62,164 nucleotides of DNA from Minisyncoccota bacterium (GTDB taxonomy: Bacteria; Patescibacteriota; Minisyncoccia; 2-02-FULL-40-12; IGHO2-01-FULL-4-A). A model generated the notes under the pieces. That model had not been told where the DNA came from. It searched no databases and saw nothing but the letters and a program-made list of their open reading frames with translations. Numbering within the stretch: position 1 is the stretch's first letter; every line of letters starts with the position of its first letter. Where the stretch lies: positions 1 to 62,164 of the forward strand of contig DATDXQ010000002.1 in assembly GCA_036517175.1 (NCBI GenBank). Reading direction: 5' to 3'. The position numbers and the translations under genes were made by a program. Below, piece after piece: positions 6,967 through 46,573 of the stretch.

Positions 6967-7959
6967 ATGTTAAACACGGACGCAAAATTAGTCGCTAATT
7001 TATTTGATAAATCTACGCTAGAAATGGCAGCCACTAGAGCCGGTTATGGTTTGGGCTTAGTTGAAGCAGGTGGGAAAGATGAGCGAGTGGTAGTGCTTTG
7101 TGCTGATCTTACTGAATCAACCCGATCAGAGGGCTTCGCCAAAAACTTTCCTGAACGATTCATAGAGATGGGTGTAGCCGAACAAAATATGGCAGTAGTT
7201 GCCTCGGGATTAGCCAACTATGGCAAAATACCTTTCATTTCGTCATATGCTGCCTTCTCTCCTGGCCGCAACAATGAACAGATCCGTACAAATATTTGTA
7301 TTAATAATGTGCCCGTAAAAATAGGCGGAGCGCATGCGGGTATTTCAGTTGGTCCCGATGGAGCGACTCATCAAGCCCTCGAGGATATTGCTCTAATGCG
7401 AGTCCTGCCAAGAATGGTTGTTGTTGTTCCATGCGACGCAGAAGAAACACGTAAGGCTACATTTGCCGCTGCATTTAATGGTTCGCCTACATATATACGA
7501 TTCGGGCGTGAAAAGTCTCCGGTGTTTACAACCAAAGACACACCGTTTGAAATAGGGAAGGCCATCACATTAAGAGAGGGGGAGGACTGTGCAATCATCG
7601 GTTGCGGCATGTTGCTCTACAACGCTTTGGTTGCTGCAGAAGAACTATCAAAGGAGGGCATTGAGTGTATGGTTATTAATTCGCATACAGTTAAGCCCCT
7701 TGATGAAACTACTGTTATAGACGCCGCTCAAAAGTGTGGAGCTGTTGTTAGTGTTGAAGAACATCAAATTGCCGGCGGACTAGGTTCGGCCATTGCGGAA
7801 TGTCTATCTCGCAATTATCCTGTGCCACAAGAGTTTATAGGCGTCCAAGATAGGTTTGGTGAATCGGGTACGCCTGGTGAACTTTTGACAGCTTTTTATC
7901 TAGATGTTCCTGATATAAAAATGGCTGTAAAAAAGGCTATCGGCCGTAAAATTGATTGA
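6967..7959 (+). CDS. Transketolase, C-terminal subunit
   Basis: ..FIEMGVAEQNM.. pyrimidine-binding motif. The ATG at 6967 follows the stop of the previous ORF. Confidence 0.85.
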   Translation: MLNTDAKLVANLFDKSTLEMAATRAGYGLGLVEAGGKDERVVVLCADLTESTRSEGFAKNFPERFIEMGVAEQNMAVVASGLANYGKIPFISSYAAFSPGRNNEQIRTNICINNVPVKIGGAHAGISVGPDGATHQALEDIALMRVLPRMVVVVPCDAEETRKATFAAAFNGSPTYIRFGREKSPVFTTKDTPFEIGKAITLREGEDCAIIGCGMLLYNALVAAEELSKEGIECMVINSHTVKPLDETTVIDAAQKCGAVVSVEEHQIAGGLGSAIAECLSRNYPVPQEFIGVQDRFGESGTPGELLTAFYLDVPDIKMAVKKAIGRKID

Positions 7960-7988
7960 GCGTTTGTCCCGATTTGTCTAAAAATGTG

Positions 7989-8243
7989 ATGTTTTATTTT
8001 TATATTTTAGTTTCAGAAAAAACAGGAAAATATTATTATGGCTCAACGGAAAATTTTGATTTGAGACTAGCTCTTCATAATTCCGGAAAGGTAAAATCAA
8101 CGAAAAATAATTTACCTTGGAAAAATCTATTTGTTCAAAATTTTAACACACTTGCAGAAGCTCGGCAAAGAGAATTACAGGTCAAAAAATGGAAAAGTAG
8201 AGCCGCCATCGAAAGAATGATTAAACATCACATTTTTAGGTAA
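7989..8243 (+). CDS. GIY-YIG nuclease family small protein
   Basis: FYFYILVSEKTGKYYYGSTENFDLRLALHNSG matches the GIY..YIG..R..H pattern. Confidence 0.7.
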   Translation: MFYFYILVSEKTGKYYYGSTENFDLRLALHNSGKVKSTKNNLPWKNLFVQNFNTLAEARQRELQVKKWKSRAAIERMIKHHIFR

Positions 8244-9758: not shown

Positions 9759-9830
9759 GGGCGCATAGTTCAGTGGTAGAACGCTGTCCTGATAAGACAG
9801 AGGTGCCAGGTCCGATTCCTGGTGCGCCCA
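9759..9830 (+). tRNA. tRNA-Ile (anticodon GAT)
   Basis: Cloverleaf read by hand: acceptor GGGCGCA/TGCGCCC, anticodon arm CTGTC-CTGATAA-GACAG, T-arm CCAGG-TCCGATT-CCTGG. No encoded CCA. Confidence 0.9.
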
Positions 9831-9980
9831 CAAATATAAGACAATTGATTGTCTTATATCAGGAATCGGGCGGCGGAGCTTATGATTTTTTGCATTTGGC
9901 AAAAAATCTTGCGAGCCGGTGGCTAGACAAAATTTTAGGAATAAAATTTTAGTCGAAGCCGATTCCTGGTGCGCCCACAA
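9831..9980 (+). other. Structured 'module D' plus a second copy of the tRNA-Ile 3' end
   Basis: Three hairpins (9836-9857, 9884-9908, and 9927-9953 with a GGAA loop) and the conserved GGAGC and GCGAGCCGGTGGCTAG blocks. The 22-nt direct repeat CCGATTCCTGGTGCGCCCACAA occurs at 9812-9833 and 9959-9980. The module is homologous to 51129-51286. Confidence 0.45.
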
Positions 9981-9984
9981 CTTC

Positions 9985-10018
9985 GGGCCGTTAGCTCAGC
10001 GGTAGAGCACCTCATTTG
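9985..10018 (+). pseudogene. Outer tRNA-Ala fragment, nt 1-35
   Basis: GGGCCGTTAGCTCAGCGGTAGAGCACCTCATTTG is near-identical to nt 1-35 of the intact tRNA-Ala. It breaks inside the anticodon. Confidence 0.55.
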
Positions 10019-10178
10019 TTCCGATTTACATCCAATAATAAAATTGAGTAATCGAGAATCCTCGATGGCTACTGGCGGGCCGTTAGCTCAGCTGGTAGAG
10101 CGCCTCATTTGCAATGAGGAGGTCACCGGTTCGAGTCCGGTACGGTCCACACTTGCGGCCCGCCAGTAGCCATCGGGA
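10019..10178 (+). other. 160-nt cassette inserted at anticodon position 35/36 of the outer tRNA-Ala and carrying an intact tRNA-Ala
   Basis: Starts TTCCGATTT and ends TCGGGA. A 19-bp perfect inverted repeat (10063-10081 / 10157-10175) brackets the inner tRNA. The arms are homologous to the cassette at 58624-58771. Confidence 0.5.
10077..10149 (+). tRNA. tRNA-Ala (anticodon TGC)
   Basis: Acceptor GGGCCGT/ACGGTCC with the G3:U70 identity pair. Anticodon arm CCTCA-TTTGCAA-TGAGG and T-arm ACCGG-TTCGAGT-CCGGT. Confidence 0.9.
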
Positions 10179-10236
10179 CAATGAGCCTGCCTGCCACAAT
10201 GCAGGGAGGTCACCGGTTCGAATGCGGTTGGGTCCA
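10179..10236 (+). pseudogene. Outer tRNA-Ala fragment, nt 36 to the 3' end (degenerate)
   Basis: Resumes with CAATGAG. It contains an extra roughly 19-nt hairpin, then GAGGTCACCGGTTCGAATGCGGTTGGGTCCA. Confidence 0.45.
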
Positions 10237-10243
10237 CAAACAC

Positions 10244-10273
10244 TTGACAATAAAGAGTTTCATTTGCTATAAT
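10244..10273 (+). promoter_or_regulatory. Consensus sigma-70 promoter
   Basis: TTGACA, 18 nt, TATAAT, about 30 nt upstream of the ATG at 10304. Confidence 0.5.
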
Positions 10274-46493: not shown

Positions 46494-46566
46494 TCCGCCC
46501 TGTTGGATTCGAACCAACGACCTTCTCCTTAAGAGGGAGCAGCTCTACCAACTGAGCTAAGGGCGG
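46494..46566 (-). tRNA. tRNA-Lys (anticodon CTT)
   Basis: Hand-folded: acceptor CCGCCCT/AGGGCGG, D-arm GCTC-AGTTGGTA-GAGC, anticodon loop CTCTTAA, T-arm GTTGG-TTCGAAT-CCAAC. Confidence 0.8.
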
Positions 46567-46573
46567 ATTTATA

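Follow-up and report, generated by a model that had tools for sequence, protein, structure and literature searches.

REPIN/REP sequences are short, structured, non-autonomous repeats that occur several to a genome, are long-lived, and have no mobility gene beside them. REPINs are simple palindromes at nonspecific intergenic sites, make no target duplication, and are served by a single-copy RAYT transposase. The integron attC site and the attP(+) hairpin of the CTX phage are DNA sites used by IntI or XerCD at attI or dif. In the ωRNAs, a scaffold is followed by a free 3′ guide that comes from the flank, and the TnpB/IscB gene lies upstream. IS110 elements, IS200/IS605 elements, and group II introns are not known to leave a 20-nt flanking repeat. 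Patescibacteria, the hosts of the locus described here, are a huge, mostly uncultured branch of the bacteria with tiny genomes. Mycobacteriophage Ms6 is an integrase-type element that recombines in the T-loop of a tRNA (PMC1762012).

Module D, the element analyzed here, was first noticed in two places of the window, by which we mean the whole stretch of DNA under study, 62,164 nt from a Minisyncoccota bacterium (contig DATDXQ010000002.1 of assembly GCA_036517175.1). Like the Ms6-type T-loop integrators, Module D is inserted 3′ of an intact tRNA and is bounded by a direct repeat that runs from the T-loop to past the 3′ end. In both cases the tRNA 3′ end is provided or restored by the element, and some Module D copies bring a terminator as well. 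Like the CIMEs, Module D has no recombinase of its own.

Results

Two copies of Module D in the window

The blocks listed in the original prediction were all found where it had placed them, in both window copies. Copy 1 occupies positions 9832 to 9980 of the plus strand, behind tRNA-Ile(GAU) (9759–9831, plus strand), which was identified by ARAGORN and by the Rfam tRNA model (67.8 bits) and is intact, with its discriminator A at 9830. An exact direct repeat of 22 nt with a spacing of 147 is shared between the tRNA and the far end of the module: the left copy (9812–9833) extends from C55/C56 of the T-loop to the discriminator plus 3 nt, and the right copy (9959–9980) is 100% identical to it. 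Between the two, on the same strand, the minimum free energy fold begins with hairpin 1 (9834–9859), which has 11 bp and a TTGA loop in this copy and covaries across the family. It is followed by the 5′ strand of helix P1, or "guide," CAGGAATCG (9860–9868), which is the complement of tRNA positions 56 to 64 and base-pairs with CGATTCCTG at 9960 to 9968, the part of the right repeat copy that makes up the P1 3′ strand. This assignment comes from the sequence and from covariation in the family. The P2 domain (9871–9918) comprises CGGC/GCCG, a conserved GGA/GA internal loop, GC/GC, and hairpin A, and the P4 domain (9922–9959) comprises GGCU/AGCC, P4b, and hairpin B with a GGAA (GNRA) loop, ending in CGAAGC-C; both domains are supported by fold and covariation. 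In the alignment A2 described below, the conserved 16-mer GCGAGCCGGTGGCTAG (9911–9926, plus strand) corresponds to the P2 3′ strand, the junction GU, and the P4 5′ strand. It is found twice within the window, in the two Module D copies and nowhere else. The original prediction had called it nearly identical between the copies; it is indeed present in both, but its Y is one side of a covarying P2 pair (CRGC/GYYG).

Copy 2, including its repeat, lies on the minus strand at 51129 to 51285, behind tRNA-Arg(UCG) (51286–51358, minus strand; ARAGORN and Rfam). Its body (51150–51285) was delimited by sequence, fold, and a covariance model score of 122.6 bits, and contains hairpin 1 (51251–51272), the P1 5′ strand (51239–51248), the P2/hairpin A domain (approximately 51190–51236), and the P4/hairpin B domain (51150–51188), all on the minus strand. 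The distal copy of the 3′ part of tRNA-Arg (51131–51149, minus strand), located by an exact repeat search, repeats 19 nt of the gene (51286–51304) at a spacing of 155, and it reads ...GGCACCA where the gene reads ...GGCACAA. P1 of this copy is of the tandem G.A/A.G variant and has one C.A mismatch facing tRNA position 59. The folds of tRNA plus module are more stable than those of shuffled sequences for the two window copies (z = −8.0 and −6.1). The covariance model, built from 114 copies that included both window copies, gave these two 122.6 and 112.9 bits, and the next match in the window had 11 bits.

Two of the 10 tRNAs of the window carry the module. In neither window copy did the interval from the tRNA to the module contain a terminator-like site, and its promoter-like matches were limited to weak ones (9 of 12) on the opposite strand. 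The genes around the two copies encode a transketolase, a GIY-YIG protein, RsmA, a sortase, and a CAP-domain protein; further neighbors are a uracil-DNA glycosylase (PF03167) and a UvrD-type helicase, read from the sequence and annotated in orthologues.

The uracil-DNA glycosylase gene stands beside tRNA-Ile, and homologues that are 72 to 81% identical occur in Yanofskybacteria-like genomes. In three of these relatives, tRNA-Ile(GAU) and tRNA-Ala(UGC) adjoin the gene. Where the gene order is the same in relatives, 9 to 35 nt separate tRNA-Ile from tRNA-Ala, as in locus L143, which reads tRNA-Ile|AACTTTTAT|tRNA-Ala, and in L145, where the spacer is 35 nt; nhmmer detected no module in the relatives' loci L143 to L147. 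The order in the window is tRNA-Ile, 147 nt made up of one repeat unit and the module, AACTTC, and the 5′ half of tRNA-Ala. Compared with the empty site in L143, the AACTTC directly 3′ of the right repeat is the ancestral tRNA-Ile/tRNA-Ala spacer. Because the relatives' spacers are short and free of the module, the Ile copy is a clean insertion of 147 nt into an ancestral spacer beginning with AACTT. An empty tRNA-Ile allele of the same species was not found in the metagenome scan. Taken together, the exact 22- and 19-nt repeats and the empty site in relatives agree with the predicted insertion flanked by a repeated 3′ part of the tRNA.

Occurrence of the family

Module D proved to be a family, with members at more than 230 places in the public genomes and metagenomes of Patescibacteria. 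A scan of 185,579 species-representative genomes with the pattern GGAGC...GCGANNNNGTGGCTAG...GAAGCC returned at least 117 loci, nearly all of them in metagenome-assembled genomes titled as Patescibacteria, with about 5 matches attributable to chance. By record title, the lineages are Magasanik-, Yanofsky-, Uhr-, Kerfeld-, Falkow-, Nomura-, and Taylorbacteria, Paceibacteria, and "Saccharibacteria"; a few records are titled "uncultured Gammaproteobacteria," a taxonomy that is that of the title only. A tRNA on the same strand ends at most 130 nt upstream of GGAGC, and mostly 35 to 100 nt upstream, in 89 of the 116 genuine copies listed, and most of the remaining copies sit at locus ends. Of the 89 tRNA-linked copies among the genome matches listed, 55 have a repeat that agrees with the tRNA at every one of positions 57 to 73, and the tRNAs targeted represent 15 amino-acid types and about 30 anticodons.

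A second, independent scan was made of metagenome contigs with a pattern that lacked the 3′ anchor, GAACNNNGGAGC...GCGANNNNGTGGCTAG, and returned at least 123 matches. GAAGCC nevertheless lies at the expected distance in 92 of the 123 listed, and 93 of them have an adjacent upstream tRNA. Among the matches listed, 47 of 73 tRNA-adjacent copies carry an exact repeat of at least 12 nt. The metagenome copies add Tyr, His, Met, and Thr to the targets, so that the family occurs at tRNAs of at least 19 amino-acid types, which extends the original claim of a multicopy module at different tRNAs. The module is always codirectional with its tRNA, mostly 35 to 100 nt downstream, and the element is about 125 to 170 nt long.

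The anchors GGAGC, GCGA, GTGGCTAG, and GAAGCC were demanded by the search patterns, as were most bases of the 16-mer GCGAGCCGGTGGCTAG, and the invariance of the anchors is thus partly by construction; the covariation reported below falls in columns that the patterns left unconstrained. About 30 nucleotides of the junction and loops are conserved across several Patescibacteria lineages, as judged by record title, among them Paceibacteria, Magasanikbacteria, Yanofskybacteria, Uhrbacteria, and Kerfeldbacteria.

Geometry of the direct repeat

The original prediction placed the repeat from about nucleotide 55 to the 3′ end of the tRNA. Its left edge is in fact fixed at C56 of the T-loop (C55 in tRNA-Ile), and it runs 1 to 5 nt past the discriminator. 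Across the family, the right edge falls 0 to 5 nt past N73 in 55 of 67 copies and 7 to 43 nt further, through the trailer and terminator, in the other 12. The length of the repeat ranges from 9 to more than 55 nt, and a right edge that varies in this way is at odds with a fixed staggered cut. The acceptor part of the repeat is kept as well as the P1 part, with 23 and 24 mismatches, respectively, in 75 pairs. In some copies (L116, L128, and L130), the repeat is reduced to the P1 strand, and partial tandem second units and 3′-truncated units also exist. The two ends of the element, one after the trailer and the other at ...CGAAGC, are not inverted copies of each other.

We considered whether the repeat might be a retro-copy of mature tRNA and rejected this as a general origin, since CCA is present in only 7 of 78 repeats whose gene lacks it and there are 4 cases of the reverse. 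Likewise, among repeats that diverge right after N74, CCA occurs in 6 of 22 repeats and in 2 of 22 genes, which is not a significant difference. Where the repeat and the tRNA gene differ, the preference of the P1 strand for one or the other is mixed (9 to 14), a comparison confounded by indels in the repeat.

Conserved fold and covariation

The 114-copy alignment A2 gives the order of parts along the tRNA strand. An optional trailer or terminator-like hairpin is followed by hairpin 1, commonly GAGCGAGCAAACUGCUUUGCUCGC, and then by the P1 5′ strand, which consists of T-stem 5′-like bases and the complement of T-loop positions 60 to 56. After AA comes P2 (CGCC/GGCG, the GGA/GA internal loop, GC/GC, and hairpin A), and after GU comes P4 (GGCU/AGCC, P4b, and hairpin B, the tetraloop of which is usually GGAA). 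CGAAGC then leads into the tRNA sequence from C56 to the 3′ end. The overall fold is hairpin 1 plus a three-way junction, whose closing helix P1 is formed by an element-borne strand and the repeated T-loop/T-stem strand. Hairpin 1 (A2 columns 33–69) is paired in 85 to 88% of cases with compensatory changes; it had been predicted to have 8 bp and a 6-nt loop, whereas it actually has 9 to 11 bp and a 4-nt loop.

RNAalifold predicted 36 pairs, of which 26 had compensatory changes, and the additional copies thereby bear out the compensatory substitutions first seen between the two window copies. In a recount with P1 added by hand to this structure, paired cells amounted to 82.4%, compared with 64.7% in shuffled alignments and 32 to 43% when the structure was slid by 1 to 3 columns, and the covariation score was 0.443, compared with 0.150 (shuffled) and 0.075 to 0.127 (slid). 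In P2, for example, pair 109/161 is CG in 89 copies, GC in 19, and AU in 3; in P4, pair 172/207 is CG in 46, AU in 43, and GC in 20; and all 7 pairs of hairpin A have changes on both sides.

The closing helix shows the same behavior with respect to the tRNA. Opposite tRNA position 59, P1 has U-A in 48 copies, C-G in 30 (29 on A2), and A-U in 18; opposite position 57, it has C-G in 44 or U-A in 15; and tandem G.A/A.G pairs at positions 57/58 (the UGAG/CGAG type) are present in about half of the copies. P1 covaries with tRNA positions 57, 59, 62, and 64, and its mean pairing is 7.57 of 10, compared with 6.58 ± 0.08 when the partners are swapped between copies. The internal strand that the original prediction had described as complementary to the duplicated T-loop/T-stem of its own tRNA is thus seen family-wide to follow its target. 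About 10% of copies (12 of 114 on A2), the window Arg copy among them, lack a pair at position 59.

GNRA loops and tandem G.A motifs read properly on the tRNA strand only, and G:U cells outnumber A:C cells (132 versus 92). These strand-specific motifs and the G:U excess provide moderate evidence that the fold acts as an RNA cotranscribed with the tRNA, although the fold may instead be one of single-stranded DNA. Against Rfam 15, both at the gathering threshold and at E ≤ 10, only tRNAs and noise were retrieved, with no match to an intron or a self-cleaving ribozyme. Loop-loop kissing among hairpin 1, hairpin A, and hairpin B was rejected because the observed values equaled the shuffled ones. 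A second helix, between an acceptor-5′-like 7-mer and the repeat, was also rejected as a feature of the family: a perfect 7-mer precedes hairpin 1 in some copies (L026, L029, L032, and L066) and is real in this subset, but only 44% of cells in this helix are paired family-wide, and both window copies are without it.

The dependence of P1 on the target can be read as nucleic-acid-guided targeting, in which a programmable guide would be formed by the P1 5′ strand, alone or together with the acceptor-like 7-mer. By pairing with the T-loop/T-stem strand of a tRNA gene or transcript, the guide would bring either the RNA itself or a nuclease, recombinase, or reverse transcriptase encoded in trans to the insertion point at position 55/56, a logic akin to EBS-IBS pairing in group II introns or to an IS110 bridge RNA. 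The complementarity begins exactly at the junction of element and target and covaries with the four target positions over at least 19 tRNA amino-acid types. Moreover, closely related cores stand at different tRNAs with matching P1 strands; between L050 and L100, P1 differs at 3 to 4 of 10 positions and the 81-nt core at 3. However, the same complementarity is required anyway to close the three-way junction, which explains it equally well, and little programming would be required since most of P1 faces bases that are universal in tRNAs. The unpaired position 59 in a tenth of the copies also speaks against a guide, as do the loci listed, none of which has an IS110-type, TnpB/IscB, or reverse transcriptase gene linked to the module, and the flanking repeat of about 20 nt, which IS110 elements, IS200/IS605 elements, and group II introns are not known to produce. 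In addition, guides of the ωRNA type are unpaired, whereas half of the Module D guide is locked in P1. We regard guided targeting as unlikely. A self-contained, retargetable mobile RNA element, in which P1 with or without the 7-mer would read the T-arm/acceptor 3′ strand of any tRNA and direct insertion at 55/56, is in our judgment unlikely; such an element may act through an unlinked enzyme or by the RNA's own chemistry, and the duplicated tRNA segment may complete its three-way junction.

Search for an enzyme, cargo, or parent element

The original prediction proposed a search for a shared integrase, transposase, or IS110-like gene. None of these, and no reverse transcriptase gene, is linked to the approximately 230 loci listed, and no recombinase is enriched within 4 kb on either side of the copies (112 genome and 119 metagenome loci listed). 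All-against-all clustering of the open reading frames of these 112 and 119 loci yielded housekeeping neighbors only, and no DEDD-type recombinase or TnpB/IscB-sized reading frame is linked at the loci listed. Several candidates were examined and set aside. A serine-recombinase cluster in six loci is an artifact of antisense pseudo-reading frames across the conserved module, and genuine serine-recombinase genes are confined to L047, where the gene abuts the repeat, and L105. Xer-like genes also occur near L039, L077, and L081, but these are housekeeping genes in synteny. An HTH protein family near several modules (in the window at 54107–54781) is placed inconsistently and has no clear family assignment.

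More than 95% of the approximately 240 copies listed have no cargo, and no cargo contains an integrase. The only clear cargo is in L111, where two modules bracket a 5-kb island that encodes a TdeIII-type restriction-modification pair, a LexA-like protein, and a predicted nuclease, and is without a recombinase. No copy of the module was found in 2.9 million viral contigs, 50,697 phage records, and 72,556 plasmid records. A re-scan of the viral contigs with three anchors gave one chance match, and the viral-contig matches to the 16-mer alone were dismissed as chance in GC-rich contigs, the pattern having fixed a base that is G in most copies. No larger autonomous parent and no excised form was found in the collections searched.

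These results bear on the CIME-like element that the original prediction had entertained. If the module were the relic of a classical integrase-borne island, it would be the remnant of an attP arm, with cargo and integrase later deleted. The geometry of the repeat, which starts in the T-loop, stops shortly beyond the 3′ end, and leaves a restored tRNA, matches that of T-loop integrators such as Ms6 (PMC1762012), and the long forms provide a terminator-like hairpin directly after the restored tRNA; the cargo between two modules in L111 and the serine recombinase gene abutting the repeat in L047 point the same way. On the other hand, almost all copies are cargo-free, the Xer-like genes near three copies are housekeeping ones, the viral, phage, and plasmid collections contain no copy, and there is no inverted core site beside the repeat. 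Furthermore, attP arms are DNA to which proteins bind, and compensatory pairs specific to one strand, GNRA loops, and tandem G.A motifs are not expected in them. Nor does a decayed attP arm fit an element of such tiny size that has many targets, uses the repeat as a junction strand, and has no integrase-bearing parent in the collections searched. We consider a CIME relic improbable, and the least probable of the explanations weighed here.

Signs of spread within genomes and of persistence between them

Among the 116 copies listed, those at different tRNAs of the same genome are often mutual nearest relatives. The cores of L050 (Leu-GAG) and L100 (Lys-CUU) are 96% identical, those of L079 (Leu) and L080 (Arg) 91%, and those of L069, L091, and L074 91 to 99%, and in these related same-genome copies the P1 strand matches its own tRNA in each. 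Copies at the same tRNA in different genomes, by comparison, have core identities at background (0.749 versus 0.731). The window Arg copy is an exception to the matching of P1, as its CGAG-type strand suits tRNAs with G59 and faces A59. This mismatch suggests that the P1 strand was inherited and later adjusted rather than copied from the target. The similarity of cores within a genome could reflect gene conversion instead of transposition.

Syntenic tRNA-Lys(CUU) loci carry the module in seven genomes whose neighboring proteins are only 53 to 74% identical. In each genome, the local T-stem is mirrored by both the repeat and the P1 strand, and the core identity does not follow the identity of the neighboring proteins. 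Such loci indicate either a very old element with a homogenized repeat or recurrent re-insertion, and the pattern suits a long-kept, possibly useful RNA equally as well as recurrent insertion.

An alternative is a host-useful RNA in the tRNA trailer, the transcript of which would serve the cell, with the insertion-like features being the way in which copies arise. It could be a minihelix resembling a tRNA, with the T-stem prolonged by P1 and, in some copies, the repeated acceptor 3′ strand paired with the upstream 7-mer, or it could serve to process, protect, or sense the tRNA precursor. The repeat would be part of the functional RNA, and its identity would be kept by selection or gene conversion. 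Consistent with this, the 30 or so junction and loop nucleotides are conserved across Patescibacteria lineages, the tRNA, repeat, and P1 strand covary in a three-way manner at the syntenic tRNA-Lys(CUU) modules of deeply diverged genomes, and the orientation is always that of the tRNA. Moreover, the acceptor part of the repeat is preserved as well as the P1 part, four copies have the perfect acceptor-5′-like segment of 7 nt, and no mobility gene is linked at the roughly 230 loci listed. However, only some tRNAs of a genome have the module, as with the two in the window, and the module is missing from the orthologous site of the nearest relatives. The existence of truncated copies and of partial tandem second units, the low family-wide pairing of the acceptor-like helix, the repeats cut down to the P1 strand in three copies, and the lack of any matching RNA family in Rfam 15 also weigh against a role for the host. 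We consider a host RNA possible, but only tentatively so.

Discussion

Our analysis favors Module D as an undescribed family of small, non-autonomous insertion elements that are specific to tRNA 3′ ends, contain a structured RNA, and depend on an enzyme encoded elsewhere, a reading to which we assign a probability of roughly one-half. The family is without a match in Rfam 15, in the phage or plasmid collections, or in the literature found, where a search for a description of the Module D family yielded only general work on tRNA integration; its kin are tRNA-targeting non-autonomous elements. There is also a real chance that the mechanism is genuinely new.

As a small insertion element, Module D may work as follows. 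The element would be cotranscribed with the tRNA, and its fold would act as RNA. Insertion would depend on an enzyme whose gene lies elsewhere in the genome, in the manner of REPINs and their single-copy RAYT gene. The enzyme would act at the T-loop, and a product of the Campbell type or with a target duplication would keep the tRNA intact. The universal part of P1 (G-C56, A-U60, and GGG-C61-63) could let the element use any tRNA, after which the variable positions of P1 would be adjusted by compensatory change, and gene conversion or re-insertion would keep the two copies of the repeat alike. A classical integrase is poorly suited to such moves, since the element would need the 3′ end of each new tRNA.

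The significance of the family lies in part in its hosts, in which a repeat family that occupies many tRNA loci has matched nothing in the libraries searched. As a mobile element, Module D would be one of the smallest with site specificity, would build the target duplication into its own fold, and would imply a trans-acting enzyme that recognizes the tRNA T-loop. As a host RNA, it would add a new structured RNA linked to tRNAs, whose highly conserved junction is of a type known from ribozymes and protein-binding scaffolds. If the retargetable element were true, it would represent a new class of nucleic-acid-guided insertion, reprogrammable by about 10 to 17 nt. In practical terms, the element leaves 3′ fragments of tRNAs that can confuse tRNA annotation and genome assembly, and it is a convenient marker for strain-level variation in Patescibacteria genomes.

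Comparing Module D with known systems, similarities and differences are found in each case. Like the REPINs, it is short, structured, non-autonomous, present in several copies per genome, and long-persisting, with no adjoining mobility gene; however, it is bound to tRNAs, has a target repeat of 20 nt and a complex junction fold, and has no known RAYT-like partner. MITEs and derivatives of classical insertion sequences differ from it in that Module D has no terminal inverted repeats and a repeat of no fixed length. As with the EBS-IBS pairing of group II introns, the bridge RNA of IS110, and the seekRNA of IS1111, an internal segment is complementary to the abutting sequence in a target-dependent way. 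Unlike these systems, Module D has no Rfam-matched catalytic core and no reverse transcriptase or DEDD recombinase nearby, it has a flanking repeat of about 20 nt, and its complementary strand closes its own fold. The order of scaffold and 3′ target-derived segment is shared with the TnpB/IscB ωRNA, whereas positions 56 to 65 of Module D are paired in P1 and no TnpB/IscB-sized reading frame is linked. The integron attC site and the CTX-phage attP(+) hairpin resemble Module D in that inverted segments about 100 nt apart can pair and the structure is conserved more than the sequence. In Module D, this pairing would rebuild the chromosomal target duplex (tRNA positions 56–65), but its GNRA loops and G.A motifs favor RNA, if only modestly. 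Finally, in contrast to the Ms6-type integrators and the CIMEs, Module D is about 130 nt long with no arm-type organization and no integrase-bearing parent in the collections searched, and a single family occupies tRNAs of at least 19 amino-acid types and forms a covarying three-way junction that is closed by the repeat itself.

Variant copies of Module D

Several members of the Module D family in Patescibacteria genomes and metagenomes depart from the simple arrangement of module followed by tRNA 3' repeat. In five loci (L041, L043, L045, L113, and L114), the repeat after the module is split past position 58-60 by an insert of 13-18 nt, examples of which are AAGCGTACTCGCG and TAATAGCGAAGCGC. 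Locus L092 carries a second unit about 20-110 nt past the module, consisting of the trailer, hairpin 1, the P1 strand, and GCCGGAGCG. Here, tRNA positions 61-76 are joined straight onto the unit, and the entire P2-P4 core is absent with an exact boundary. Moreover, loci L050 and L100, which involve different tRNAs of one genome, have in common a small hairpin module, TCCCCCTTCGCTCAACTTYGTTGAGCTACGGAGGGA, about 20-60 nt past the Module D repeat, and its complementary strand is similar to the acceptor plus D-arm of a tRNA.

Surroundings of the two window copies

The window contains two sigma-70 promoters of the extended -10 type with the configuration TTGACA-18-TATAAT, each a perfect 12/12 match. 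One (51095-51124, minus strand) begins a few bases past the tRNA-Arg repeat, and the other (10244-10273, plus strand) begins a few bases past a tRNA-Ala remnant. In several other members of the family (L051, L106, L112, L120, and L125), TTGACA likewise comes immediately 3' of the repeat.

Downstream of the Ile copy, the tRNA-Ala(UGC) gene (10077-10150) looks like a cassette inserted in an older tRNA-Ala (region 9984-10240), represented by a diverged 5' half (9985-10018) and a 3' remnant with 88% identity (10205-10238). A perfect inverted repeat of approximately 20 nt lies on either side of the newer gene (about 10060-10080 with 10156-10176). tRNA-Ile and tRNA-Ala are located 9.5 kb from the end of the 16S rRNA gene, the 3' end of which occupies positions 1-193, and no 23S gene is present within the window. 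The transketolase and uracil-DNA glycosylase genes are separated in the window by a small GIY-YIG gene (7956-8243) and ~1 kb of unassigned sequence; in the relatives L143 and L146, they directly adjoin each other.

A mini-module distinct from Module D was observed upstream of tRNA-Lys(CUU) (46567-46640) and tRNA-Arg(UCG) (51359-51450), in both cases on the minus strand. In it, a pair of short GC hairpins, UCAGCCNNNGGCUGA and CCCRCCNNNGGYGGG, precedes CAAU. The one at tRNA-Lys(CUU) lies between two directly repeated copies of 17 nt from the 5' end of that tRNA (46555-46571 and 46623-46639).

A protein encoded near Module D copies

Between tRNA-Gly and tRNA-Phe, the minus strand encodes a 224-aa protein (54107-54781) with a weak transposase-type HTH and an unassigned C-terminal domain. 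Homologues were found 0.1-7 kb (mostly <2 kb) from Module D copies in seven metagenome loci and L137, and their placement varies from locus to locus. The homologue in L194 has a ...LYWGEGTKG... motif, which is possibly LAGLIDADG-like.
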